In this document: one piece after another, positions 33,069 through 61,750 of the stretch
How the letters are laid out: each line of letters begins with the position of its first letter
Numbering within the stretch: the stretch's first letter is position 1
Origin: Naegleria gruberi
Lineage: Eukaryota
DNA length: 64,000 bases
Reading direction: 5' to 3' (one strand)
Assembly (NCBI GenBank): GCA_000004985.1
Contig: GG738900.1
The notes under the pieces: generated by a model
Database searches by the model: none
What the model was told of the DNA's origin: nothing
Seen by the model: only the letters and a program-made list of their open reading frames with translations
Translations under genes and position numbers: made by a program

Positions 33069-36000
33069 ATGTACGATGTTAATAAGGACGATAACAACAA
33101 ACGAAAGGCCTCTCCAACAAGAGATGCTCTCATGCAACAAAGGTTGGAACACTATAAAAAGTATAAAAACCTTTCGTCGGATGTAGATAGGGCTGATGAT
33201 CAAGGTAGTTTTATTGACGATGAAAACTTTCTTCCTGTAACACCCTCCCCTAAGAAGAGAATTGATACAGTAAAAGGAAGAGAAACACCAAGAGAGACTA
33301 CAAAGGAAACCCCAAAGCCTAGTATAACTCCAACTCCTTCCTCATCAAAGAAAGCTCACCCAAATATTCCAGTGCGGGAAAGTTTTCCTTCTCCATCCAT
33401 GAAGTCTTTGAAACAGACCTATGATAATAGTAAGCTTAAACAAGATGAAGAGATGCAGTCTCTACTAGATAAATTAAGGGAAGAAGGTGAACAAAGACAT
33501 CTTCAGCTAATCACTCTTAAGGAAAATGAAAAGGCCGAGTTTGAACAAAGAATTATGAAGAAGGCTGAAGATATTATCACCAAACATAAGGAACAATCCC
33601 AAAGAGCCCAAGAAGAAGTGTACAGAAAGGCCGAAGAGCTTATGAAGAAATATAAAGAAATGGCATCTTTCGCTGGAAAAGAAGTTGAAAAACTAAAGGA
33701 AGAAATGGCAAATCAAAAACTTCTCTATGAAAGAGATTTTCTTGAAAAGCAAGAAGCTGCTAGAAAAGTGGCCGAAGAAGAATATCAACTTAAGGTTCGA
33801 CAATATCAACTCCAAATAGAAGATCTTCAAAAAAAGAACTATTTGCAAAGAGTTGAAATGAGTAAGAATATTGACGAAAGAGCAGAACTTCTCCGAAAAA
33901 GAGCTGAAGATGCTGAAGCTAAGTTGTTAGAAGAAATGGCCAGATTTCAAGAAAAGGAAGTTGAGTTCAGAAGTGAAATTGACTCCCTTAACAAATCATT
34001 ACCATTATTAGCACAACAAAAAGCCGATGATTTAATGAGAGACTACAATCTCAATATTAAGAAGAAAGATTTTGTTCTTAGACAAGAGCAAGATAATCTT
34101 TTGAAGGAAAGAGAGAAAGAACTCAAAAACGAATACGAACAATTAAAGAAAGAATTGGAAGAAGCCAAACTTGAAAATGAAGAGAAAAAGAATCTAGAGT
34201 TCAAGAGGCTTCGTGACAAGATGGACAATGAAAAGAAGGTTTTCGAAGAAACTGTTAACGCTAGGTTTGAAAAGATGAAGAGTCAATTAGAGGCAGAAGT
34301 TGAATCGAAGAAGGATGAACTTCGACTCAAGGAAATGATGTTGAGAGATGAACTCGATAAGGCTAGATTAGATCTTTCTCACAAGGTCATTAGTGAAAAG
34401 AAGGACTTTGAAAATGATATTTTCATGAAGACTAAATCCATGATTATGGAATTTGAAAAGCAACTCGAAAAGAAAGGTGAAGTGCAGTCTGATGACCAAA
34501 AGAAACAACTTGCCAACATTTCTCGTGATGCTCTTGACAAATTAAGAGTTGAAAAAGAGGAAAGAACTCTTTTTGAAAAACAAGCAATGGAAAAGGCAAT
34601 GAATGTTATCAAGGAATTCGAAGAAAAGATGAAGAAAGAATCCGATAGAATCACTCAAGAAAAGCTTAGAGATGTTGAAGAACAAGCCAGAAGAGACAGA
34701 GAAAGAACCGAGGAAGAAGCTAAAAAGAGAAGAGAGTTCGAAGAAGATATCAAATCAAAGTATGAGATATTTAAGGAAGAATACAAACGAAACTTGGATA
34801 GAGAGCTCTTGGAAAAGAAGAGAGAAATTGATTTAGAATTTGCCAAAAAAGAAGAAGAGTTTGAAAAAGAAATGCATGAGCAAAGAAATAACATTAAACT
34901 CCAAGAAAAAGATCTTCTGAGAAAGGTAGAAGGAATCAAACACGAAAAATTACAAGAATCAATTAATCATATTGAACAACTTAGAGGTGATTTGTACAGT
35001 CAGTGGGAAAGAATTTCCAAGGAGGAAGGTAAACGTGTTCTTGAAGAAAAGGATAAAAATCAAAGGGAAATTGAAGATATGAGACGAAGATATGAAGAAA
35101 AATTAAACCTCATTAGAATGACTACTAATAGAGAAATTGATGAAGTAAGAAAGTCTCACCAAGAACTTGAAACAAAGCTGAAGTTCGACTATGAGGAAAG
35201 AGTTCAAAAATTGAATGACGAAAAGAGATTCCTTGAAAAGGAAATGCAAACCAAGATAATAGATAAGAGAAAGGAACTTGAAGAACAATTCGAAAGAAAA
35301 CTTGAAGAAGCAAAGAAAACTTTGGAGTCCTCATTAGAACGTAGGGATAGTGATGTAAAACTCAAGAAGGAAGAAATTGAATACGAAAAACTTTCCTTTG
35401 AAAGAAAGATTAGAGAGGATTACGATACTAGAATTAGAGAAATATCTACCCAATTTGAGAAGAGACAAAAAGAATATCAAGAAAATGAAATTGAGTTGAG
35501 AAGAAAACTCGAACAAGAAAAGATTGAACTTCAAAAGTTAATGGAAGATGAAAAGATGAAATACCAAGAAAGAGTTAGAATCGAAAATGAAAAGATTTTA
35601 AGAGAAAAAGAAAAATTGTTCAAAGAAGAAAAGGAAAAGATAATTGCCCAAACCGAGGAACGTGTTCAAAGTATCAGAAAGGAAACACAAGACAGCCTTT
35701 TCAATAACGACTCAAAGAGGGGTGAATATGAAAATAGTATACGAGACAATTATAGTAAGATGTTCAGAGAAAAGGAACAATATTATCTTACACAAGTTGA
35801 ATCATTAAAACAAACTCTCAAGACACAGAGAGAGGAATATGAGAACAAACTCAATGAAACAGAATTGTCACTAAGAAAGGAAAGAGATGAGGTTGATAGA
35901 CAAATGACTGAAAAGTACAATAGACTTGTTGAACAAATGAATGGCGACTCTAAGAGAGAAACCCATAAGAGAATGCAACAAGAAATTGAATTTGAAAGTG

Positions 36001-39000
36001 AAAAACTTCAATTTGAGATTAAACTTAAGAAGCAATTGGAAGATGAAAGAAAGAAGATGGAAGACAGAATTCATGAAAAGTTCCAAATGGCAGCTGAAGA
36101 AACAGAAACTCATTACAATGATATCATTAGAAATTTGAAAAATAGACTTGATGAAGAAAAGTCTATTATTGATTCAATGGGTAAGAGAGAAAAGGAACTT
36201 CAGAGAATGTATGAAGAAAAATTGCTTGATACCCAAAGACAAACAGAGTTTGCTAAAATGCAATATGAGGAAGAGTCCAAGATGAGATATACACATCTTC
36301 TTCAAGAATATACTCTCAAGGTAAGACAAGAGTTACTTGAGAAGGAAAAGAAGGAAAGAGAGGAAAGACAGAAAGAAATGGAAGAGTTGAACGCCAAGTT
36401 GGTTAGAATGGAAGAAGACAAGAGACTCTTCGAACAAGATGCTAGAGAAAGAGCTCTAGAACTTGTGAAAAAGGTTGAGGAAGATGCCAGAAGAGAAAAG
36501 CAGAAATTGGAAACATACTATAATGACCTTATTAGAAAGCTTCATGAAGAAAAGACCCTGTACAAGCAAGAAGTTGATGAACATTTGAGAATCAAGGAAA
36601 AGGAATTAAGAGCAAGCGTTGACACACTTAGAGTAAAGCTAGAACATGCAACAGATGCTAGAATCTTGGAAGTGAACGAAATTCTTGAAAAAGAACGAAA
36701 CAGATTCATGAAAGAAATGAATGACAGAGCATTGAGAGAAAAGGAGGACAGAATTGTATTTGAAAAGCATCTTCGTGAGGAGATGGAAAATGAATTCCAA
36801 CAAAGAGCCTCAATTGTTGCAGCAAATATTAAACTACAAACAGAAGAAATTGAAAGAAGAATGTATGAAACTGAAAATAATGAAAGAAATAGAATTAGAA
36901 TATTTGAAGAAAGAAGAAAAGCTTATGAGGAAGAAATTCGTGCCAAATACAATATGATTATGAGTCAAGTTGAAGAAGAACAAGAAAAGAATCTTCAAAC
37001 TGTAAAGAAAGAAATTGAAGAAGAAAGAGACCTACTCACTAAGAGACAGAATGAACTTCAAAAGCAGTTCGACTTGGTCACTATTTCTTATGAAAAGACT
37101 ATCAGAGAAAAGTATGATTCTTTGAGACAAGAACAAGATCAAAGATATAAAGATATGCTCAAACAAAAGGATTTCCAATACCAAACCGAAATTGAAGATA
37201 TGAAGAAATCAAGATCTAAGGAGGTAGAATCAATTGAAAGAGACAAGCTTGAATTTGAATCTCGATTGAGAGAAAAGTATAACCTGTTAGAAAGAGAATT
37301 GGAAGGAAAGTATATTGCCCTTCTTTCTGAAGCAGAAAATAGATACAAGAAGGATAAGCAAAAGTTAGAAACTGAAATAGACAAACTCAGAAATGAATTG
37401 CAAATTATGGATTCTCAAAGACTTGAGTATGAGCAACAAACTAGAAGAAGATATGAGGAAATTTTGGAAAAAGAAAGAAATGAAATCCTTAAAGATAAAT
37501 CTCAAATGGAAAAACAATTTAAGAAGGAAATCGATTCTAATATTGAATTATTCAACGAGAGACAAAGAATACTCGAAAAGAGCAAGTTGGATTATGAAGA
37601 GTCTGTTAGAAATAAGTACATGAGAATTTCTGAAGAAAAAGAGAATCAATTAAAGGCCGATCACGAAAGCCAAAAGATGGCGGATCAAAAGAAGTGGGCT
37701 GAAAGACAGGATGAATGGCTTCAAAAGGAGAGAGAATTCGAAACCAAGATTATTCAATATGAAGATCAAATCAAGAATAAGTATGAAGTTATTATCATGG
37801 ATAATCTCAACAAGACGCAAGCTGAAATGAGAAAGCTTAGATCTCAATTAGATGAAGAAAAGAATGCACTTCTCCAACAATTAACAGAAAAAGAAAGAGA
37901 TTTGAATGCTAAATATCAAAGATTTGAAAGAGATTGCAAATCTAACTTTGAAAAAGAAAAGAGAGAATTGATTGCTCACCATGACTCTGTTATTGAAGAA
38001 CTGAAGAAGGCTCTTGAGCAAGATAGAGCAACTTTGCAAAAGGCAGCCCAAGAAAACAGCTTGGAAATGGAAAGAAGATTGATTTCTCACGAAGAAAATA
38101 TTAGAAAACAATACGAAGATAGATATGTAGAGTTGGATGGAGTTCTTCGCAAAGCCATTGAAGATAGAGAACTACAACTACAAAACGAATGGAATAACAG
38201 ATTTGTTAAGGAACAAGAGAGAATGAATACTAATGATCTAGCAAGAATTGAGTTTGAAGATAGAACAAGAGACTACTTCTTCCAATTATTCAATAACAAG
38301 CAAGCTGCTATGGAGCTCCAAATTAATGAAGAAAAAATGAAATTAGAAAAGGAAAGAGAACAAATGAATATTGCTCTTTCAGACAGAATTCAAGAAATTA
38401 GACAAGAAAAGATTGCCTATGAAGCTGAAATTAGAGAGAAATATAATTCTCTCATCCAAAAGGTCCAAGAGGAAATTAATGTCATGTTAAAGGAAAGAGT
38501 TGAGACCGAAAAATCTGAATGGGTAGCCAGAGAGCAAACCTTCATTGAAAGAGAAACTGAATTACACAGGGAAAGAATCAAATCCGAAGAAGATACTAGA
38601 CAAAAACTTGATCAACTTTTGGATTTGGAAAAGAAAAAGTGTAATGAAATCATTGAAACCCTCCAACAAAAGATTAATGAGGAAAGACATTTGGAAAAGG
38701 TTGAGCTTTCAGAAAAGGAAAGAAAATTGGAGGAATACAAGATTGATTATGAACATGTTGTCAGAGAAAAGTACAACATTATCTTGGAAGATGCTCAAAA
38801 GCACTACAAGACAATGATTGAAGAAGCCACTGATAATTTCAATTCTGAACATGACAAACTCATCAAGGAATTCATTAAAAGAAAAGAAGAACAAGATGGT
38901 GAATTACTTGTCTTACAAAATCAATATAGAAAGGAAATCGAAGATCAGCTTATCAAGTTCCAAGAAATACACACCCAAACAATCAAGATGAAGGAAGAAC

Positions 39001-40988
39001 AATTCCATCTTGAACTTGAGGCTGTATCAGAGTCAATCAGAGAAAAGACTTTGGCAAATGACCTTGCTAGAATTGAATATGAAGAGTATGCCAAGAAGAA
39101 GTTTGAAGAAAATATCAAAGAAGAGCTCCAAAGAATTAAACTCATGGAAGAAAATATTAAGGACCGTATGAGAAAGGATTTGGAAGAAAGAGAAAGAAAA
39201 CGCATTGAAGATAGAAAATCCTTTGATGTTGAAAAGGATATCCTTGAACAAAAGATTAGATCCAAATATGAAAAGATTGCAGAAGAACAAGAAAGAGTTC
39301 ATGTTGCCCGTATAGAACAAATACAGGCTATGGTAGATCAAGAAAGAGATAATCTCGAAAGAAGAGACATTGAAAGAAAACAATTAGCTAGAGAACAAGC
39401 TGCCGAGTCTGAAGAAAAAATGAGAAAGTCTTTTGATGAAAAATTCAAACAACTAGTGGAAGAATATGAAAACAAGATTAGACAAAAGGATAGAGAAATG
39501 GTAGCTGAAAAGGATAAATTCAGTGAAGATATGAGAAAGAGAGAAGCTGAAATTACTCAAATCACAGCCGATTTAGATGAGCAAATATCTCAAAAATACA
39601 AGAAGATTCTTGACCAATCAGAAGAAGCAATTAGAAGAGAATTTGAAGTTAATGAAATGCACTTTAAGGCCGATCTCAATAAGAGGTTCGAAGATCAAAT
39701 TAGAGAACTTGAAATTGCTTCACGTATTGAACAACAAAAATACGAAGAAGATATCCAACTTAGATATGAAAGTAGAGTTAAATCTGTTGACGAAAAGTGG
39801 AGAAGTGAATTAGACATTCTCAAGAAGTTCCATGATGAAGAGATTACCAAGCTTCATGACGAAAGTAGACAACAAAGACTATTAGAACAAGAAAATAGAA
39901 CTCAATACGAGCTTGCAGTAAGAGATCAATACTTCACTAAGCAAAAGGAATTGGAGAATGAACATATCGAAATTATTCAAAGCATTAGAAAAGAAGAGGA
40001 AGAAAATAGATCCAAACTAAATGGTCTTTTAGAAGAAGAAATTCAAAGAGTCAAAGACTCTGTTTATCAAGAGAAGCTTGAAATTGAAAAGAGTTATGAC
40101 AAGAAGCTTGACGCTGTCAAAAAGTGTTTTGATGTTGATATTGCTGAAATTAAAAAGCAATTCCAAGAAAAATCCACTGTCATGGATCTTGCAAAGCTAG
40201 ATTTTGAACAAAAAACCAAAGCTAAATATGAAAAGATTCTGGCCGAAGTTCAATCCTCTTTAGAAAAGAAGTTGGATGACAGAAATAAGGAAATTGAAGA
40301 AGCTAGAAAGCAAATGCAACAAGAGAGAATGAATTATGAACTCCTAGTTAGAGAGAAGTATAATGAAACTCTGAAAGAAAAAGAAAAGCAAATGGAAGAA
40401 ATCCTTAAAGAAAGAGAAATGCTTCTCCTTGATGATGATCAAAGAAGAAATCTTGCCTCCTTAGAAAAGGAAAGAAGATTAGAACAAATGAGAATTGAAA
40501 AGGAAGAAGAAATGAGAGCCAGATTTGAAAAACAAACAGAAGAAATTAGAGAATACAGTAAAGCACAAATAGAAGAAACAATCAAACAACTTGAACTCGA
40601 AAGAAATAAGAAGGAAGAAACTGAAAAAGAAATTATGAAACTCCAACAACAAATTGCTAGTATGCAACATAGTATGGATATGTGGAAATTAGAATATCAC
40701 AAGACCACAACATTGAAATTCAAGAAATTAATGAGCGAAGTTGAGCTCAAAGCCAAACGTGAAATGGAAGAATTTGCCAGACAACAATTAGAAGAAGAAG
40801 AGAGAAGATTAACTCAAGAATTGAGAAAGAAAGATGAAGAATTGAGAAAACATAAACAAATGGAAGAAGAATTGCAGCTCAAGACCATGGAACAGCAACA
40901 ACCAAAGAGAACTCAACCTGGTGAATTTTCTGATAGTACCAGTGAAAAGAACTTCCCAATCAAAAAGGGACTCAGAAACTTTAAATAA
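33069..40988 (+). CDS. giant 2639-aa, extremely E/K/R-rich repetitive coiled-coil / single-alpha-helix-type protein; single 7.9-kb exon
   Basis: Uninterrupted ORF from a true ATG at 33069. The K/S/T/P-rich N-terminus is followed by ~2400 aa that are almost entirely E, K, R, L, Q, I and D. Degenerate motifs recur at roughly 55/110-aa spacing: (I/V)REKYN, AKYE, RNKYM, LARIEFE/LARIEYE, LEKERN. All antisense ORFs in this span are low-complexity artefacts. Confidence 0.7.
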   Translation: MYDVNKDDNNKRKASPTRDALMQQRLEHYKKYKNLSSDVDRADDQGSFIDDENFLPVTPSPKKRIDTVKGRETPRETTKETPKPSITPTPSSSKKAHPNIPVRESFPSPSMKSLKQTYDNSKLKQDEEMQSLLDKLREEGEQRHLQLITLKENEKAEFEQRIMKKAEDIITKHKEQSQRAQEEVYRKAEELMKKYKEMASFAGKEVEKLKEEMANQKLLYERDFLEKQEAARKVAEEEYQLKVRQYQLQIEDLQKKNYLQRVEMSKNIDERAELLRKRAEDAEAKLLEEMARFQEKEVEFRSEIDSLNKSLPLLAQQKADDLMRDYNLNIKKKDFVLRQEQDNLLKEREKELKNEYEQLKKELEEAKLENEEKKNLEFKRLRDKMDNEKKVFEETVNARFEKMKSQLEAEVESKKDELRLKEMMLRDELDKARLDLSHKVISEKKDFENDIFMKTKSMIMEFEKQLEKKGEVQSDDQKKQLANISRDALDKLRVEKEERTLFEKQAMEKAMNVIKEFEEKMKKESDRITQEKLRDVEEQARRDRERTEEEAKKRREFEEDIKSKYEIFKEEYKRNLDRELLEKKREIDLEFAKKEEEFEKEMHEQRNNIKLQEKDLLRKVEGIKHEKLQESINHIEQLRGDLYSQWERISKEEGKRVLEEKDKNQREIEDMRRRYEEKLNLIRMTTNREIDEVRKSHQELETKLKFDYEERVQKLNDEKRFLEKEMQTKIIDKRKELEEQFERKLEEAKKTLESSLERRDSDVKLKKEEIEYEKLSFERKIREDYDTRIREISTQFEKRQKEYQENEIELRRKLEQEKIELQKLMEDEKMKYQERVRIENEKILREKEKLFKEEKEKIIAQTEERVQSIRKETQDSLFNNDSKRGEYENSIRDNYSKMFREKEQYYLTQVESLKQTLKTQREEYENKLNETELSLRKERDEVDRQMTEKYNRLVEQMNGDSKRETHKRMQQEIEFESEKLQFEIKLKKQLEDERKKMEDRIHEKFQMAAEETETHYNDIIRNLKNRLDEEKSIIDSMGKREKELQRMYEEKLLDTQRQTEFAKMQYEEESKMRYTHLLQEYTLKVRQELLEKEKKEREERQKEMEELNAKLVRMEEDKRLFEQDARERALELVKKVEEDARREKQKLETYYNDLIRKLHEEKTLYKQEVDEHLRIKEKELRASVDTLRVKLEHATDARILEVNEILEKERNRFMKEMNDRALREKEDRIVFEKHLREEMENEFQQRASIVAANIKLQTEEIERRMYETENNERNRIRIFEERRKAYEEEIRAKYNMIMSQVEEEQEKNLQTVKKEIEEERDLLTKRQNELQKQFDLVTISYEKTIREKYDSLRQEQDQRYKDMLKQKDFQYQTEIEDMKKSRSKEVESIERDKLEFESRLREKYNLLERELEGKYIALLSEAENRYKKDKQKLETEIDKLRNELQIMDSQRLEYEQQTRRRYEEILEKERNEILKDKSQMEKQFKKEIDSNIELFNERQRILEKSKLDYEESVRNKYMRISEEKENQLKADHESQKMADQKKWAERQDEWLQKEREFETKIIQYEDQIKNKYEVIIMDNLNKTQAEMRKLRSQLDEEKNALLQQLTEKERDLNAKYQRFERDCKSNFEKEKRELIAHHDSVIEELKKALEQDRATLQKAAQENSLEMERRLISHEENIRKQYEDRYVELDGVLRKAIEDRELQLQNEWNNRFVKEQERMNTNDLARIEFEDRTRDYFFQLFNNKQAAMELQINEEKMKLEKEREQMNIALSDRIQEIRQEKIAYEAEIREKYNSLIQKVQEEINVMLKERVETEKSEWVAREQTFIERETELHRERIKSEEDTRQKLDQLLDLEKKKCNEIIETLQQKINEERHLEKVELSEKERKLEEYKIDYEHVVREKYNIILEDAQKHYKTMIEEATDNFNSEHDKLIKEFIKRKEEQDGELLVLQNQYRKEIEDQLIKFQEIHTQTIKMKEEQFHLELEAVSESIREKTLANDLARIEYEEYAKKKFEENIKEELQRIKLMEENIKDRMRKDLEERERKRIEDRKSFDVEKDILEQKIRSKYEKIAEEQERVHVARIEQIQAMVDQERDNLERRDIERKQLAREQAAESEEKMRKSFDEKFKQLVEEYENKIRQKDREMVAEKDKFSEDMRKREAEITQITADLDEQISQKYKKILDQSEEAIRREFEVNEMHFKADLNKRFEDQIRELEIASRIEQQKYEEDIQLRYESRVKSVDEKWRSELDILKKFHDEEITKLHDESRQQRLLEQENRTQYELAVRDQYFTKQKELENEHIEIIQSIRKEEEENRSKLNGLLEEEIQRVKDSVYQEKLEIEKSYDKKLDAVKKCFDVDIAEIKKQFQEKSTVMDLAKLDFEQKTKAKYEKILAEVQSSLEKKLDDRNKEIEEARKQMQQERMNYELLVREKYNETLKEKEKQMEEILKEREMLLLDDDQRRNLASLEKERRLEQMRIEKEEEMRARFEKQTEEIREYSKAQIEETIKQLELERNKKEETEKEIMKLQQQIASMQHSMDMWKLEYHKTTTLKFKKLMSEVELKAKREMEEFARQQLEEEERRLTQELRKKDEELRKHKQMEEELQLKTMEQQQPKRTQPGEFSDSTSEKNFPIKKGLRNFK

Positions 40989-47377: not shown

Positions 47378-49702
47378 ATGAAAGTATTTGTATTTGAGGC
47401 CGATGATTATGCCGAAAAGTACCTCTGTGAGAGATTGTATGCCGAGGAAAATGTAGGTTATCAATTGAATCATTGTCATCAACATGATCGACAATTTTTA
47501 TTTATCAATAAACTAGTTTGTGATTGGAACAAGTAAAACTGGAAAGGACTCTATTCCATTCGTAAATAAATTAATTCAGGTAAGGAAGATTAATAGTGAT
47601 GTAAATAATTGTTTACAACCTTTAAAAAGAATGATCCGAAGGAAATTAGGAATGCACTTATGGATGTGGATGCAATTGTATATAGATTGAAGGAGAGTAA
47701 TATTGATGATACTAGATTTGCAATCAAAGTTATTGAGGCTGCCGAATTCAATGAACCTAAAACAATGATCTTACTCTCGACAAGTATGTCTTGGGCAATG
47801 ACTCGTAAAAGTTTTACTGAAGCAGATCAAGATGATGAAGCAGAAAAACCATTAAGAAAGCCATATGAAGCTTTCACTGAAGATGCATTTGTCACAAGAA
47901 AACCTCACAACTCATTTAAAGGATTTGTTGAAATTGAAAAGAGAGTTATGAGAGCTAAATCAAAATATCTCAGAACCTTTGTGTTCTTCTGTGGAATTTT
48001 GTATGGAGAAGAGGAAGAAAAATTACATCAATGGTTTAAATTGGCTTGGAATGGAGAAGGTGACTCATTGCCTGTCTTTTTGGATGGTGGAAATTATGTT
48101 CCAATGATTCATGTGCAAGATTTAGTATCAATAACTCAAAAAACAATTGAAGAGCCACCCCAACCAAAGGACGGTGAGGATGATTATCAACAAGCATTTC
48201 TTGCAGTGGATGAATCCCAGTTGACTCAATCTCAAATAGTTGAATGCATTAGTCAAAAGTTTGGATTTAATGGAAAGGTTGAAAAGCTAGATGAAGAAGA
48301 GTGTTTAATTTATGACTACTTTGAATATTTCACAGCTGACGTTAAACTTGCCATTGGTGCTGTCAATGAATTCTCCTTTGAATGGGTTTCCAAAGAGGGG
48401 TTTGCTGAGAATTTCGACAAAATCAAGCAAGAGTTTGAAAAGAAGAGAAATCTTGCTCCTCTTAGAATTTTAATGATAGGTCCACCAGGTGCAGGAAAAT
48501 CCCACTATTCTGCTCAAATGAAGAGAAAATATAGATTGGATGTTGTGAACTCGTCTTCTGTAATTTCAGATTTTGAAGCATTGGTGAAAGAGAAGGAAGC
48601 AACCTACCATAATCTTGTTCAAGAAAAGAAAGACAAGATTGAGCACGCCAAACAATTGAGACTGCAAAAGAAGAAGGAGCTAGAAGAAAAGAAGAAAAAG
48701 CAAGAAGAAGCTAAAAACGATGGAGATGACGATGAAGACAACCAAGAACCTCCTCAAGAAGAAGATCCAGAAGAACCAGCAGAAGAGGATAAGGAAGAAG
48801 AGGAAGGTTCACCAATCTTTGTTGCAAAACAAGAATTTGAAAAATACAAGGCCATTCTTGATTTGAAAGAGAACAGTGGAAGATATAATGATACAGCAAT
48901 TACTGAAATGTTTAGATGGAAACTGTCTCAACCAAGGTTGTTGAACCATGGTTGGATACTGGATGGATTCCCAAAAACAGTTGAGCAAGCTAAACTTCTT
49001 TTTATTAAGCGTGCAGAGGGAGATGATGAACCAAAGGGTGTGGATGATCATTTGTTCCCTGATTATTGTATTATTTTCAATTGTAAAGAGAAGGTTTTGG
49101 AGGATAGATTAATCAATATAACTGATCCAACTCCAGGACACAATGACCAAGATGGTTTTAAGAGAAGACTTGAAGCCTTTAACAAGGCTAACGATATTAA
49201 CAATTTAACCACATATCTTTTGGGCTATATTGAAGAATGTGTTACTGAACAAAAGAGACAGTGTATAACGAAGGAAGTAGTTTTTGAAACTGAAAGAGAT
49301 GAAAAAGAAATACTGACCGAAGTTAAGGAGTTTTTGGGTAAGCCGCACAACTATGGTCCAACAGAGAAGGAATTAAAAGAAAAGGAGAGAAGAAGAGCTG
49401 CCAGAGAAGATGAACAACAAAAACAAGAACAACAGAAGCACCAAAATGCTTTGGAAAGAAAGAGAAAACAAGCAGAAGAAAGAGAAAGAGTATTAAGAAG
49501 TGATGCTGAAAGACTTGAAGAAATAAGAAAGCAAGAGAAAATCATGCTTGAAGTCAAATCTCAACCACTTAGAGTTTACCTTATGGAAAATGTCATTCCA
49601 GTTCTTACCAAAGGGTTGATTGAAGTGTGTCAAATGCAACCAGAAGATCCTGTTGATTATCTTGCTGAATGGTTGTTCAAACAAATTCCTGATGATAAAT
49701 AA
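47378..49702 (+). CDS. AK7: adenylate kinase 7 (AK7)-type protein: N-terminal Rossmann-like domain, adenylate kinase core, C-terminal Dpy-30 motif; 3 exons (47378-47452, 47517-47579, 47630-49702)
   Basis: The match to AK7 runs along the length. MKVFVFEADDYAEKYL aligns with RVFINLLDSY; FVIGTSKTGKDSIPF with FQIVGTLSKPDSPRP; PKTMILLSTSMSWAMT with RKLFILLSTVMTWA; HQWFKLAWNGEGDSLPVF…AVDES with HTFFKMAWLGEIPALPVF…AVDES. The P-loop reads ILMIGPPGAGKS and the LID region GWILDGFPKTVEQAKLLF. The Dpy-30 motif reads PLRVYLMENVIPVLTKGLIEVCQMQPEDPVDYLAEWLF. The true ATG exon and a 63-nt second exon were found upstream of the TTG-initiated track ORF. Introns are 64 and 50 nt with GTAGGT and GTAAGG donors. 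Confidence 0.85.
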
Positions 49703-57088: not shown

Positions 57089-57669
57089 TAGATAACTATG
57101 GAAATGGATTTGTCTCCGCTTAACCTTAAGAGCCTCAATGCGGTCTATTTGCTATTTTGAACCCTCGAGGCCAAGGATACTTAAATCTCTTTGGATAACC
57201 TGCCGTTTTAGTATTTATTTCTGAGATGTTATGTTATCCAATGAGATTCTGCAAATCATTTTCATTTATGGCAGTGTGAGAAATGAGTGACAGGAATGGA
57301 CTGGGAATAAAACAATCCTTAATGGATGTGTTGGAAATACGCATCACGAGGATTCTGGTTCACATTCAGAGTGATTCACACATTCTTACCAATCCTTAAA
57401 ATGAAAATGGCAACTTGCAAGAAGAATTTCATACCTAAATGCAACCATGATTGAGTCCATGCTCCATTAACTCTTTTAACTTTCACTATTTACAATTTCG
57501 AATACTGAACTGTAAAACTTACTCAAAAATTTTTTTGTAAACATAAACCCCACAGTAATAGATTATCAACCTTATTCCCTTTGTCCATTCAAAAACGTGA
57601 CAGGAAACGTGATACGTAAAACCAGATTTTGATTTGGCAAGCGAAAAAATTGTAAAAATAGAAAAAAAA

Positions 57670-58809
57670 ATGACTCGACTTGATGTGCAGTTTTGTAAGG
57701 GATTTGTTCAGACTAATGTTCAGAACGTTTATTGTACAGATGTTGGTGGAAAGGGATTGAAGAATAATAATGATCGATTTATTTTACAGTTTAATCAATA
57801 TTATCAGAAAGGTTTGATGGTGAAAAATCAGGAGAAGGGAATTCCGATGAGATATTTTGAAATATTTATTCAGCATGTTTCTGAGAAAAAGCCAATATTT
57901 GCTATTGGATTGGCAAAACCTAATTATGATAGAGGAATGGTTGGTTGGTATGATGAATCGATTGGATATCATGCTGATGATGGATATGTTTTTCATAATG
58001 TTGGAAATCAACATAATACTGAGAATTTGATTGGATTGTATTCTTTTGGAGATAGTGTTGGAGTTTTGTTAATTGGTTCTAAAGCATATTTTACAAAGAA
58101 TGGAGTAGCTAATACCAAAGCTTTTGAGCTGAAGAATTATGCTCATGAACAATATTTACCAACTTTGTCTTCTTCAGATTCTGACACTACCATCAAGGTT
58201 TTAAGTCCAAGTGAATTCAAGTTCAATATTGACAAGTTCATTAAAGAAGATTTGAAACTCGAATTAATAGAGAATGAGACACCTCAAAGAAGTGTAAATG
58301 ATTCTGCTAATGACATGCTGAATCATTGTGATGGATTGAAAAAGTTAATTCTAGATGTGATAGAACAACAATCAGTGAATGATTCTCTCCAAAAGCAAAA
58401 AGATACTGAAATTCAAAAATTGAAAATTGAAATTACAGAGCTACAATCCTCTAACGAAAAACTGAAACAACAACATGAAATAACCTTAAAAGAGAATGAA
58501 AAATTGAGAGATGTAAAGACAAGACTTGCACTCAATCAACAAGATATCAATAATTTAAGTCTGGAACAATTGAAAGAGTTGTCACGTATTCTCCTAGATA
58601 CTCAAAACACAATCCATAGTAAGGAGAAAGACTTGCTAGATGTTGAGCTACTCTGTGTGGTTTGTCAAGATAAGAGAAAGAATACCTTGTTCTTACCTTG
58701 TAAACATCTTTGTGTTTGCGCTGAATGTGCTGAGAGTGTCAAATCTACTGGAAAACAATGTCCAGTTTGTAGAACTGTTATATCTGATAGCATACAAACA
58801 CATCTCTAA
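57670..58809 (+). CDS. SPRY domain, coiled-coil and C-terminal RING-finger E3 ubiquitin-ligase-like protein, ~380 aa
   Basis: The track M at 57634 is a TTG; the first ATG is at 57670 (MTRLDVQF…). SPRY: IGLAKPNYDRGMVGWYDESIGYHADDGYVFHNVGNQ…FGDSVGVLLIGSKAYFTKNGV. Coiled coil: EIQKLKIEITELQSSNEKLKQQHE. C-terminal C3HC4 RING: CVVCQDKRKNTLFLPCKHLCVCAECAESVKSTGKQCPVCR. Confidence 0.75.
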   Translation: MTRLDVQFCKGFVQTNVQNVYCTDVGGKGLKNNNDRFILQFNQYYQKGLMVKNQEKGIPMRYFEIFIQHVSEKKPIFAIGLAKPNYDRGMVGWYDESIGYHADDGYVFHNVGNQHNTENLIGLYSFGDSVGVLLIGSKAYFTKNGVANTKAFELKNYAHEQYLPTLSSSDSDTTIKVLSPSEFKFNIDKFIKEDLKLELIENETPQRSVNDSANDMLNHCDGLKKLILDVIEQQSVNDSLQKQKDTEIQKLKIEITELQSSNEKLKQQHEITLKENEKLRDVKTRLALNQQDINNLSLEQLKELSRILLDTQNTIHSKEKDLLDVELLCVVCQDKRKNTLFLPCKHLCVCAECAESVKSTGKQCPVCRTVISDSIQTHL

Positions 58810-58869: not shown

Positions 58870-61218
58870 TTATTTATGCTTGATGTAGTATTGATCACTT
58901 TCATCGAATGCTTTGAAAATTGTATGTAATGGTTGGCCGGTAACAAGGAGGGAAGAAAGTCCATTTTCATTTCTTTCAGCTTGGAAAGCTTCATGTTGAT
59001 ACATTAAAATATTGAAAACTGGTGTGTTGCAGTTGGATTGAACTGGTGAGGCTCTCATGAATTGATTGTAAATAGCCAACATGTTCATTACAACTTCAAC
59101 ATTTCCACCAACAATTCCAGGATTAAGAAGCATACTATTTAGAGGTGTTTGATGTTTAGAAAGGGTATTAAGTGGATAAGGAGCTGATTTGTTATAGTAG
59201 AATGATCCATTGACTTCATCAATAGTGATGGAGCATTGAGCAAGCTTTTGTTGAGCCCACTTGGATGAACCAATAGTGGTTGGCTCTGAACCAAAGAAGA
59301 GCTTGTCAGTACTTTCACATACATCACCATCACATTCATCAAAGGTAGAAAGATATTCGAAAGGATTCTTATTAAACTTGATATCAAATAGATCAGTCAT
59401 TATAACTCTCTTTGGTAAAAGACTGAGGCCTTTAGTTGATTCTCTTTGAGCTTGAAGAAGGAAGTTTTCATAAATGAAGAATCTCTCATCATTGGTTGAT
59501 CTCTCACCCAATTGAACGAGTTCAAATCTTACATTATATGAAGTTAACTTGTTGAAACCACACTTGGTGTAAAGTTTGGCATCGTCATAGAAAACCACAG
59601 CTCTAAGATTATGTTTGTGAACCGATTCGTACCATTCTCTCATTGGCTCAAAACAAGAGTCACCATATTGTTCATCTCTTTCTGGATGACCCTTTGTAAC
59701 AAAGTAAGTGGTAAAAATAACATCGTCTGTTACTTGATTATTGGAAAAGTGATAGTATTTCAAGTACCAATCAACAAATTTACGAACACCATCTTCGAGT
59801 TTGGTCTTTGGTTGGAAATTGAGTAATTCTTGACTGTGTGTAATGTCAGCAAAGGTAATGGTCATATCAGTTGGTGGTTTCTTTACATGATTAATCTTGG
59901 CCTTCTTATCGAGAGCCTTTTCAATATACTTGATCATATCAGTAACCTTCTCAGGAGTATGGTTACCTAAATTGAAAACATCATGAACAGCTCTTCCTTC
60001 TTCTCTTTTAACACGATCTCCATAATTCATAGAATTGATAATACCATTAACAATATCATCAATATAGGTAAAATCTCTCATTAACTCTTTTCCTTCGAGA
60101 GTGTAAAGAGTAATTGGCTTACCCTTAACAATTTGATCAACCCAACTGAAAAGAGCCATATCTGGTCTTCCATAAGGGCCATAAACAGTAAAGAATCTCA
60201 ATCCAATAACTGGAATACCGTAAAGGTAGTTATAAGTTTCAGCAAATAATTCTTGGGATATCTTGGAGGCGCTATATACATTGGTAGGTTTGTTAATGTT
60301 CATTTGTTCATGGAATGCAGATGGATCAAATTCTTGAATGTTTCCATAAACGCTTGAACTGGAGGCATAGGCAAAAACTGGAGGATTAGTTTTTTGGTAT
60401 TTAACACTAGTTTCCAACAATTCTATTTGACAGAGAATGTTATTTCTAATGTAGGTTTGGGGATTTTTAAGGGAATATCTTACACCAGCTTGGGCAGCAA
60501 GATGGAGAACATGTGTAAAGGTGTATTTCTCGAAAATTTCACTCAAAATTGAAGTATTGCATACATCTCCCTCAATGACTTGAAAATCAATGAATGGCTT
60601 AATGTCTGCTTCTTCTTTTCTCAAAATTGTACTCGCTTGTTCAATCAAATTTTGATTGATTTCTCTAACAGTCTTTTCCAATTGTTTCTTTCTCATGTAT
60701 TTCAAGTCAGTTGAGTAGTAGTCATTGAAATTATCAAGACCAATCATGACACTACGTTCAACATTATTCAATGCCAAATCAATTTGTTCAATATTGCCCT
60801 TTGTTTCATTGACAAGAGTTGCCATAAAATTGTTCCAATAGGCAAACTCTTCCTTTGCAAGCTTTTCAGCAAGATGAAAGCCAATAAATCCAGCACTTCC
60901 AGTAACTAGAACTTTACGAGAATGAGAAGATTGGGAAAGACCAACCGTATTATCAGATTCTCCTGATGATGTCATATTGGTGGAAGCACTTCCACTAACA
61001 ATAGAACCATCAACAGAAGCAGCAACACTTGCAACAGAAAGTCCGGAAGCAGTATTGCTGTTAGAAGTAGTGGAGGCAACAACTACTTCGGAGTGTGCAT
61101 TACCAGCACACATCATCAAGACAATGGCAAACATCATCATGATTGTCATCATCTTCCATGATGATGAGAACTTTAACAGAATGGTACTCTTAGAGTAATA
61201 ATAGTGTCTATGAGACAT
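58870..61218 (-). CDS. type-II membrane protein with UDP-glucuronate 4-epimerase-like (GAE, extended SDR) domain fused to a ~400-aa uncharacterised C-terminal domain; single exon
   Basis: The track M at 61239 is a TTG. Candidate ATGs are at 61218 (MSHRHYYY…) and at 61152 (MMTIMMMFAIVLMMCAGNAHS, a signal anchor). An S/T-rich stem follows. The SDR core reads KVLVTGSAGFIGFHLAEKL, FTHVLHLAAQAGVRYSLKNPQTYIRNNI, YASSSSVYG, YSASKISQELFAETYNYLYGIPVIGLRFFTVYGPYGRPDMALFSW (YxxxK). This closely matches plant-type GAE UDP-glucuronate 4-epimerases. The C-terminal half (…VIFTTYFVTKGHPERDEQYGDSCFEPMREWYESVHKHNLRAVVFYDD…) matches no family I recognise. Confidence 0.75.
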   Translation of the reverse strand: MSHRHYYYSKSTILLKFSSSWKMMTIMMMFAIVLMMCAGNAHSEVVVASTTSNSNTASGLSVASVAASVDGSIVSGSASTNMTSSGESDNTVGLSQSSHSRKVLVTGSAGFIGFHLAEKLAKEEFAYWNNFMATLVNETKGNIEQIDLALNNVERSVMIGLDNFNDYYSTDLKYMRKKQLEKTVREINQNLIEQASTILRKEEADIKPFIDFQVIEGDVCNTSILSEIFEKYTFTHVLHLAAQAGVRYSLKNPQTYIRNNILCQIELLETSVKYQKTNPPVFAYASSSSVYGNIQEFDPSAFHEQMNINKPTNVYSASKISQELFAETYNYLYGIPVIGLRFFTVYGPYGRPDMALFSWVDQIVKGKPITLYTLEGKELMRDFTYIDDIVNGIINSMNYGDRVKREEGRAVHDVFNLGNHTPEKVTDMIKYIEKALDKKAKINHVKKPPTDMTITFADITHSQELLNFQPKTKLEDGVRKFVDWYLKYYHFSNNQVTDDVIFTTYFVTKGHPERDEQYGDSCFEPMREWYESVHKHNLRAVVFYDDAKLYTKCGFNKLTSYNVRFELVQLGERSTNDERFFIYENFLLQAQRESTKGLSLLPKRVIMTDLFDIKFNKNPFEYLSTFDECDGDVCESTDKLFFGSEPTTIGSSKWAQQKLAQCSITIDEVNGSFYYNKSAPYPLNTLSKHQTPLNSMLLNPGIVGGNVEVVMNMLAIYNQFMRASPVQSNCNTPVFNILMYQHEAFQAERNENGLSSLLVTGQPLHTIFKAFDESDQYYIKHK

Positions 61219-61750
61219 TTTACGATATGTAATGAGCAATGATGCAACAGGGATGCAATAGAATCTACAAACTAATATTAGGAAGAGGACAACGAGTGTT
61301 GAGATGAGGATCCTTTTTTTTGTTAAATAGTAAACTTGATTTTTAAAATAGAGACCATGGACCTCAAATAAATAGCAGAAGTCCGCATGGGAAGTTTAAA
61401 ACTCTAATTATGCTTCCTTCATTCTGTGATGCATCATCAATGATAACACTTGTAGATTGCCAGCATGAATAAGTAAATATTTGCTTCTGGTTCCCTCCTT
61501 ATTGAATAATGAATATTATTCGGTCATTTTCAAGGAGTATCATCTTGATCAAACAATTGAAGAGACAGGAGTTGAATGGCCTGAGTGTGGACAAATGGTT
61601 GCTTTCAGTTTTGAAATTCCAAGTTTCTCCTCCACTACAGTGTCGAGGAGTTAAAGAGGAGTTATTGAAGGTCAAATAATTTGAAAAGATTTTCCTCATG
61701 ACTTCCGTGTTACTACTGTTCCGTAGTGTGAGTGAAAATATCAGAATTGA

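Follow-up and report, generated by a model that had tools for sequence, protein, structure and literature searches.

The 64,000-nucleotide stretch of Naegleria gruberi DNA analyzed here (assembly GCA_000004985.1, contig GG738900.1; hereafter the window) carries on its minus strand a gene for a two-domain protein. The first domain is predicted to be a UDP-glucuronate 4-epimerase of the GAE type, built on the extended short-chain dehydrogenase/reductase (SDR) fold. The second has the predicted GT-A fold of glycosyltransferases and can be filed in no named family. The gene lies within an uninterrupted open reading frame (ORF; 58870..61239), whose first ATG, at 61218, opens a protein of 782 amino acids (aa; MSHRHYYY…YYIKHK). 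At the local base composition (~34% G+C), the chance probability of a stop-free run this long is ~1e-26. The translation matches the public N. gruberi protein P0006 (782 aa) with 100% identity over 100% of its length, so the public gene model shares this start and is without an intron. P0006 is named merely "NAD-dependent epimerase [Naegleria gruberi]" in the public database. The gene is already public, but its annotation covers the first half alone. Four other proteins keep the fusion, one from Naegleria fowleri (P0008) and three derived from metagenomes (P0007, P0009, and P0010). Residue numbers refer to the 782-aa protein, and secondary structure is taken from its full-length AlphaFold2 (AF2) model. 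The main parts of the gene are as follows:

58870..61218, minus strand: complete coding sequence, a single exon of 782 aa plus the stop codon at 58870-58872
61090..61152, minus strand: hydrophobic segment, aa 23-43 (MMTIMMMFAIVLMMCAGNAHS), the top-scoring Kyte-Doolittle 19-residue window of the protein (1.9); helix 19-39 in the AF2 model
60925..61089, minus strand: Ser/Thr-rich disordered stem, aa 44-98; 43% Ser/Thr, predicted local distance difference test score (pLDDT) below 50, 12-18% identical to the nearest relatives
59746..60924, minus strand: extended-SDR domain of GAE type, aa 99-491; Pfam PF16363 (1.5e-47) and PF01370 (1e-42)
58873..59745, minus strand: C-terminal domain of GT-A fold and unclassified family, aa 492-782

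The full-length AF2 model has a mean pLDDT of 85.5 and a predicted template modeling score (pTM) of 0.83, which suggests a defined packing of the two domains. Ahead of them, a short, basic N-terminus (aa 1-22) leads into aa 23-43, the sole strongly hydrophobic stretch of the protein, which ends in AHS/E and has an equivalent in P0007. This segment could serve as a signal anchor or be cleaved off as a signal peptide, and in either case the remainder of the protein would be lumenal; the catalytic part is probably located in the Golgi. The hydrophobic anchor-like segment and the Ser/Thr-rich stem described in the initial annotation are both present. The annotated N. fowleri orthologue P0008 (FDP41_004746, 739 aa) begins with a poly-Asn stretch and is without the hydrophobic N-terminal segment of N. 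gruberi and P0007, so the annotation of its 5' end may be wrong.

The SDR half carries the following features:

60880..60903, minus strand: NAD-binding motif TGSAGFIG (GxxGxxG), aa 106-113, invariant in alignment A3
60751..60843, minus strand: insertion 1, aa 126-156 (31 aa), found in the Naegleria clade alone, where it makes helix alpha1 longer and brings in a further helix
60715..60747, minus strand: strand beta2 and NAD-ribose motif MIGLDNFNDYY, aa 158-168, aligning with residues 30-52 of 5u4q
60586..60669, minus strand: insertion 2, aa 184-211 (28 aa), likewise confined to the Naegleria clade, with one helix extended by it to aa 170-199
60343..60366, minus strand: ASSSSVYG, aa 285-292, catalytic Ser/Thr and carboxylate-binding Ser cluster, aligning with STSSVYG of UGAepi, the UDP-glucuronic acid 4-epimerase of Bacillus cereus; the cluster is invariant in A3
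60262..60276, minus strand: YSASK, aa 315-319, the catalytic YxxxK, aligning with Y149/K153 of 6zl6 and kept in all active GAEs examined
60154..60198, minus strand: GAE signature RFFTVYGPYGRPDMA, aa 341-355; T344 and R351 align with T178 and R185 of B. cereus UGAepi

All of the motifs that the initial annotation had likened to plant epimerases are present (TGSAGFIG, YSASK, and RFFTVYGPYGRPDMA). The named close database matches (from plants, Capsaspora, and annelids) are all UDP-glucuronate 4-epimerases, at 37-41% identity and E ~1e-70, and plant GAEs fall in this range. Among solved structures, the SDR half matches 5u4q from Klebsiella (9.6e-65) and B. cereus UGAepi (6zl6/6zla, 1.6e-39). Residues S287, Y315, and K319 align with T126, Y149, and K153 of the latter, and S286-S289 fall on its STSS cluster. 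This Ser/Thr cluster, together with Thr178 and Arg185 (UGAepi numbering), handles the carboxylate and distinguishes GAE from GalE and UXS. The acidic residue expected after strand beta2 in extended SDRs is D162 of GLDNFNDYY, a motif in which G160, D162, N163, N165, Y167, and Y168 are invariant in A3. The Naegleria clade retains every one of G107/G110/G113, D162, S287, Y315, K319, T344, and R351. Among curated models, the generic Pfam PF16363 and PF01370 alone pass; NCBIfam equivalogs stay below their cut-offs, and none of those returned is GAE-specific. Because the catalytic, carboxylate-handling, and NAD-motif residues are all kept, we accept the SDR half as GAE type, and on these residues it is very likely to be a UDP-glucuronate 4-epimerase. 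The initial annotation had recognized this domain correctly but had cut it short, as the SDR runs to ~aa 491. A different arrangement of GAE domains occurs in Amphora coffeiformis and related diatom-like proteins (P0012 and P0020; 800-950 aa), which carry two in tandem with intact-looking motifs.

Extra sequence does interrupt the NAD-binding fold, as first noted, but not as one block of ~95 aa. Alignments to 5u4q and to eight GAE-containing proteins ruled out a single insertion of 95 aa and gave two, placed around the conserved MIGLDNFNDYY. Both are confined to N. gruberi, N. fowleri P0008, and P0007, and are missing in P0009, P0010, plant GAEs, and Capsaspora; insertion 1 is also absent from 5u4q in the alignment. 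In the AF2 model they belong to helices 111-138, 143-152, and 170-199 (pLDDT ~95). Within the Naegleria clade, identity is 13-16% for insertion 1 and 57% and 14% for insertion 2, against 68-74% for the whole SDR domain. When P0007 to P0010 are compared together, the stem and the insertions are 4-18% identical, except for insertion 2 (57% to P0007, 36% to P0009). We read the insertions as fast-evolving, lineage-specific surface decorations that lie outside the chemistry. Insertion 1 contains an N-glycosylation sequon, NET, at N137 (60808-60816), with NMT at the aligned position in P0007 and none in N. fowleri. The epimerase half is otherwise an ordinary member of the GAE group; its insertions are what is unusual.

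The C-terminal half carries these features, where A2 is an alignment of 100 family members:

59479..59493, minus strand: NDERF, aa 576-580; R579 invariant and D577 nearly so in A2
59359..59397, minus strand: TDLFDIKFNKNPF, aa 608-620, placed where a core strand ends; both aspartates of its DxxD motif, D609 and D612, invariant in A2
59134..59229, minus strand: Naegleria-specific loop insertion, aa 664-695, absent in P0009 and P0010 and of low pLDDT in the domain-only model; sequons at N670 and N676
59104..59124, minus strand: NPGIVGG, aa 699-705; G701 invariant and N699, G704, and G705 nearly so in A2
58873..58884, minus strand: C-terminus IKHK, aa 779-782; H781-K782, invariant in A2, are the last two residues

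Since the SDR alignment ends at ~aa 491, the extra C-terminal domain measures 291 aa (aa 492-782) and not the ~400 aa initially estimated. It forms a second globular domain in the full-length model, with pLDDT mostly 84-97. We ruled out an SDR C-terminal extension: the SDR alignment stops ahead of this region, and the remainder also exists as a stand-alone protein. It is an independent domain and no trivial tail. The initial view that it has no recognizable family is borne out at the sequence level, where Pfam, NCBIfam, and PDB sequences gave no significant match. The sole Pfam match was PF03407 (Nucleotid_trans, GT77-like), at 12.8 bits (E 0.12), below the gathering threshold of 22 bits. NCBIfam returned nothing for the domain, nor did PDB sequences, whether searched with the single query or with a 100-sequence profile.

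A word-indexed homologue search with the C-terminal domain gave five matches and missed the Naegleria protein itself. The family was revealed by an exhaustive profile search, in which a profile of six sequences (A1) was run against 1.84 billion cluster representatives. This retrieved 2226 proteins at E <= 1e-3, including 408 at E <= 1e-30, and the window protein was the top match (E 2e-93). In every listed match the domain lies at the protein end or no more than ~20 residues from it, and of the 148 best family matches newly retrieved, nearly all close with a His-Lys dipeptide. Six residues are invariant in A2 (R579, D609, D612, G701, H781, and K782); the window protein has all of them, and they are 100% kept across all 28 fusion proteins examined. 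Further conserved motifs of the family are TTYF, W-x-S, NDERF, TDxxDV..NPF, NAGxxGG, NxNM, and GxP. Stand-alone proteins of 225-345 aa make up most of the family. Where the organism of such a protein is named, it is one of the Bacteroidota (Flavobacteriaceae, Echinicola, and Roseivirga), and the name given is almost always "hypothetical protein". The family also matches the C-terminal half of the 482-position profile phrog_1579, annotated as "glycosyltransferase" (E 2.9e-5 for the window domain, down to 7.5e-21 for other members); this annotation may derive from the other half of the profile.

The bacterial neighborhood was examined for one member, the Echinicola homologue P0003, which lies between GT32-like and GT4 genes in a Wzm/Wzt ABC-transporter cluster with ten other glycosyltransferase genes. 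A second homologue, P0005, lies on a virus-like contig and adjoins GT47-like, GT11-like, sulfotransferase, and methyltransferase genes. The full glycan-modification block on this contig (L002 1-20744, L003) consists of two GT1-like genes, P0005, the GT47-like and GT11-like genes, two sulfotransferases, and the methyltransferase; the contig also encodes a ribonucleotide reductase, a T4-type RNA ligase 2, and a PARP-domain protein. Structure models of giant-virus proteins in BFVD match the C-terminal domain at 20-24% identity and TM-scores of 0.58-0.67, and these proteins probably belong to its family (A0A3G5AEI9 from Hyperionvirus, 846 aa; A0A6N1NM99 from Tupanvirus, 233 aa; and A0A3G4ZPA3 from Terrestrivirus, 1292 aa). 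One of the giant-virus matches is fused to a glutamine amidotransferase domain.

Structure prediction places the C-terminal domain in the GT-A fold, as its model superposes on solved GT-A enzymes. The glycosyltransferase-like module that the initial annotation had listed as a candidate is therefore the one that the fold points to. Foldseek independently ranks GT6 first (ABO transferases and alpha3GalT; E 6e-9, probability 1.00). In a separate comparison of the domain-only AF2 model with solved structures, the next nearest folds after GT6 are the glycosyltransferase domain of LH3, mimivirus R699, WbbM, GT31 enzymes, and GT8 enzymes (LgtC and glycogenin). In the AF2 model, D609-x-x-D612 sits in a short turn between strands 604-608 and 613-615, and GT-A enzymes carry their DxD metal-binding motif at that position, at the end of the core strand. 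GT8 enzymes have a C-terminal metal-binding His and a phosphate-binding Lys, and GT6 enzymes have a mobile, catalytically important C-terminal tail; by analogy, the terminal His/Lys of the family recalls both.

At the level of sequence, each of these affiliations fails. None of the 100 members matches the Pfam GT6 family, and hhalign against human ABO transferase (its sequence entered by hand) gave a probability of 0.5%, aligning just the NAGxxGG / YYLGGFFGG strand, so that GT6 membership cannot be claimed from sequence. For GT8, no PF01501 match was found in the family, and hhalign of A2 against the GT8-fused member P0163 returned its C-terminal domain and nothing to its N-terminal GT8 domain. 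For GT116 (TOD1/MUCI70), there is no PF04765 match in the family, and hhalign of A2 against the PF04765-bearing protein P0067 gave 0.15%. The domain thus fails every sequence test for GT6, GT8, the GT77-like PF03407, and GT116, and we file it in no named family.

The fusion is conserved beyond N. gruberi. Domain order is identical in P0007 to P0010, and the junction (…WYLKYYHFSNNQVTDDVIFTTYF…) is conserved. P0007 (65% identity) is encoded without interruption by 785 codons of an independent metagenomic contig (L005), with eukaryotic neighbors that include a radial spoke protein and HSP70/HYOU1. P0009 and P0010 are ~40% identical to the Naegleria protein and come from eukaryotic metagenome contigs; on one of these (L004), P0010 lies beside guanylate cyclase/RGS and NDK genes. 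Identity to P0007/P0008/P0009/P0010 is 74/68/41/41% in the SDR half and 69/70/41/40% in the GT-A half, and the two halves are therefore conserved to the same degree between species.

We propose that the protein is anchored in, or released into, the secretory lumen, probably that of the Golgi. There, tightly bound nicotinamide adenine dinucleotide (NAD+) in the SDR half would oxidize UDP-glucuronic acid (UDP-GlcA) at C4, and the 4-keto intermediate would rotate and be reduced again to UDP-galacturonic acid (UDP-GalA), by the same route as plant GAEs and B. cereus UGAepi. In the GT-A half, D609, D612, and probably H781 would hold a divalent metal on the UDP diphosphate, while Lys782 and Arg579 would contact phosphate and sugar; these roles are drawn from motif position and analogy and not from a residue-level superposition. 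An acceptor glycan or glycoprotein would then receive the sugar. The closest folds belong to enzymes of GT6/GT8 type, which are retaining and take galacto-configured UDP-sugars, and by this analogy a retaining transfer of alpha-GalA would be the likeliest reaction. The fusion would place a donor-making and a donor-using site on one polypeptide, and transfer would pull the freely reversible epimerization forward. The analysis establishes the domain limits, the residues present, the fold, the family, the gene contexts, and the degree of conservation; from these we infer both activities, the donor, the stereochemistry, the ligand roles, and the localization. That the C-terminal domain is an active glycosyltransferase we consider likely. 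We lean toward the bifunctional epimerase and glycosyltransferase model as a whole, and we assign UDP-GalA as the donor tentatively, at somewhat less than even confidence.

Several observations weigh against this proposal. The C-terminal family has no characterized member, and no significant sequence link ties it to any glycosyltransferase of CAZy, Pfam, or the PDB; PF03407 appears weakly in six of the 100 family members (E 0.12-0.009, best 0.0093). Its acidic motif is DxxD and not the canonical DxD, and the domain-only AF2 model is moderate (pLDDT 72, pTM 0.78). The packing of the two domains is weakly supported, with just five sequences spanning both. In the literature on Naegleria we found no report of galacturonic acid in its glycans; we likewise found nothing on a Naegleria UDP-glucuronate 4-epimerase, on epimerase-glycosyltransferase fusions, or on the C-terminal family. 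Finally, there is a second class of fusion. Among the best 150 family members, 23 of the 37 long ones share an N-terminal domain that is distantly related to the Naegleria SDR: Capsaspora CAOG_00723 (P0209), Saccoglossus XP_077867079 (P0234), and 21 metagenome-derived proteins. All 23 have lost YxxxK and the GAE Thr/Arg pair, the middle Gly of GxxGxxG is usually replaced, and the six GT-A invariants are all kept. Judged by these residues, their SDR half is catalytically dead and cannot be an epimerase. Remnants such as an …MKRSR… pattern after the beta2 motif suggest that the dead halves derive from GAE. Two classes can thus be told apart: one joins an active-looking GAE to GT-A, as in the Naegleria clade, P0009, and P0010, and the other joins a pseudo-SDR to GT-A. 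The second indicates that the transferase needs no epimerase in cis and that its donor need not be UDP-GalA.

The alternative that survives best follows from this point. Both halves would be active, but the GT-A domain would take another donor (UDP-Gal, UDP-GalNAc, UDP-Glc, or UDP-GlcA), and the fusion would serve co-localization, SDR dimerization, or sequential glycan steps. Besides the pseudo-SDR fusions, it can draw on the many stand-alone members, on members whose fusion partner is instead GT8 (P0163) or Sulfotransfer_2 (P0190), and on the GT6 enzymes among the nearest folds, which take UDP-Gal or UDP-GalNAc. Set against this, the Naegleria clade, P0009, and P0010 keep every GAE catalytic residue, and their two halves co-evolve at equal rates. 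In Capsaspora, a separate intact GAE (P0102) exists beside the pseudo-SDR fusion P0209, so UDP-GalA could be supplied in trans. Moreover, two metagenome proteins from JGI (P0067 and P0070) join an intact GAE to a PF04765 TOD1/MUCI70 domain that scores above the Pfam threshold. MUCI70/RGGAT1 is the founding member of CAZy family GT116, whose donor is UDP-GalA. GAE has thus been joined to a UDP-GalA-using transferase at least once with an unrelated family, which shows that this linkage recurs. The pseudo-SDR fusions weaken the case for UDP-GalA without removing it, and we rate a different donor as unlikely, though to be taken seriously.

It is improbable that the C-terminal domain, while of GT-A fold, is no glycosyltransferase at all but a nucleotide-sugar-binding, regulatory, or lectin-like module, a nucleotidyltransferase, or a sugar-nucleotide hydrolase. 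The non-canonical DxxD and the want of a characterized relative would fit such a role; an invariant acidic pair together with invariant His, Lys, and Arg is the pattern of a catalytic site and not of a binding module, and the bacterial gene fills a glycosyltransferase slot in a polysaccharide cluster.

We find it quite improbable that the SDR half is another extended SDR, such as a UDP-GlcNAcA or UDP-Glc/GlcNAc 4-epimerase, a UDP-xylose synthase, or a 4,6-dehydratase. The best NCBIfam scores are indeed for dTDP-glucose 4,6-dehydratase and GalE, both far below threshold, and the best PDB match, 5u4q, was deposited as a "dTDP-glucose 4,6-dehydratase". Yet the signature RFFTVYGPxGRPDMA is complete, T344 and R351 included; plant GAEs and 6zl6 also have the SSSS cluster and DNFNDYY; and the named close matches all belong to the UDP-glucuronate 4-epimerases. 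In UGAepi, a Thr/Ser network holds the UDP-GlcA carboxylate, Arg185 holds that of UDP-GalA and blocks decarboxylation, and site-directed mutagenesis that disrupts this stabilization turns the enzyme into a decarboxylase (PMC12338863). That the fusion is an artefact, with two neighboring genes run together through faulty assembly or annotation, or an unseen intron or stop between the halves, is vanishingly unlikely and has nothing in its favor: the 2346-nt frame is continuous in 34% G+C DNA, as it is in the orthologue, and N. fowleri shows the same architecture and junction, as do a single ORF on an independent metagenomic contig and two proteins of 40% identity on eukaryotic contigs.

The bifunctional proposal makes this gene a well-defined, testable candidate for a glycosyltransferase family that would be new and whose donor is hinted at by the fused partner, and it breaks no known principle. 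If it holds, a family that spans more than 2,000 sequence clusters, with neither a Pfam nor an NCBIfam model, gains a fold and a probable activity. With a fused partner predicted to make UDP-GalA, the Naegleria protein would be an unusually informative entry point to the donor of the family, and acidic, GalA-containing glycans would be predicted in Naegleria. The orthologue in the brain-eating N. fowleri is without a counterpart in humans and would face the secretory pathway, so its product could matter for cyst wall or surface biology. The two classes of fusion also offer a natural experiment on how a biosynthetic enzyme turns into the pseudoenzyme partner of a transferase. A bolder reading, possible but doubtful, makes the C-terminal domain the first of a new family of alpha-galacturonosyltransferases, retaining and GT6-like. 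The fusion would then be an old eukaryotic one, intact in Heterolobosea, with the epimerase decayed to a pseudoenzyme scaffold in lineages such as Capsaspora, hemichordates, and annelids. On this reading, GalA-containing glycans would await discovery in Naegleria (the pathogen N. fowleri among them) and in some marine animals, and Bacteroidota and giant viruses would carry the transferase on its own. Should the bifunctional reading be wrong, the gene would be a GAE plus an accessory domain.

The flanking genes of the window are unrelated to the epimerase gene and give no functional context, as expected for a eukaryote. They encode a SPRY-RING protein, an AlkB-like 2OG oxygenase, an adenylate kinase with Dpy-30, a Kelch-repeat protein, and ORFs without a family match; short plus-strand ORFs that overlap the epimerase gene are without support. 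Two of the neighbors are placed as follows:

57634-58809, plus strand: SPRY and C3HC4 RING gene, E3-ligase-like, convergent with the 3' end of the epimerase gene; the stop codons are ~60 nt apart
47609-49702, plus strand: adenylate kinase domain with a C-terminal Dpy-30 motif

An adenylate kinase joined to Dpy-30 is an architecture typical of flagellar proteins and would fit an amoeboflagellate. Elsewhere in the window, an ORF of 2639 aa (33069-40988, plus strand) has no Pfam match at E <= 1e-4. It falls within a region, ~34-42 kb, where strand asymmetry is unusually strong (AT skew 0.35-0.43), with a GC skew of 0.22-0.31 over 34-40 kb.

Among known systems, plant GAE1-6 and B. cereus UGAepi (6ZL6/6ZLA) share with the Naegleria protein the extended-SDR fold, GxxGxxG, DNFNDYY, SSSSVYG, YxxxK, and RFFTVYGPxGRPDMA, and plant GAE1-6 also share an N-terminal membrane anchor and stem. 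Plant and bacterial GAEs stop directly after the SDR domain, whereas the Naegleria protein adds a 291-aa GT-A domain and insertions of 31 and 28 aa. GT6 enzymes (human ABO GTA/GTB, bovine alpha3GalT, and Bacteroides BoGT6a) resemble the C-terminal domain in the GT-A fold, in an acidic motif after the core strand, and in a Gly-rich strand like xxGGxxGG. They differ in sequence, with no significant similarity, and in having DVD where the family has DxxD; the terminal HK has no verified GT6 counterpart. GT8 enzymes (GAUT/GATL, LgtC, and glycogenin) share an acidic motif, which binds metal in GT8, and, as known of GT8, a C-terminal His/Lys pattern, and the GAUTs are the canonical users of UDP-GalA; unlike them, the family has no PF01501 match, and P0163 carries a separate, genuine GT8 domain beside the family domain. 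The pseudo-SDR fusions have the same two-domain order and the same C-terminal family with all invariants, but their SDR half is without YxxxK, the GAE Thr/Arg pair, and often the middle Gly of GxxGxxG, all of which the Naegleria protein keeps. The GAE-GT116 proteins P0067 and P0070 likewise have an N-terminal, active-looking GAE followed by a glycosyltransferase-type domain; that domain is unrelated to the GT-A family described here, which points to an independent fusion event.

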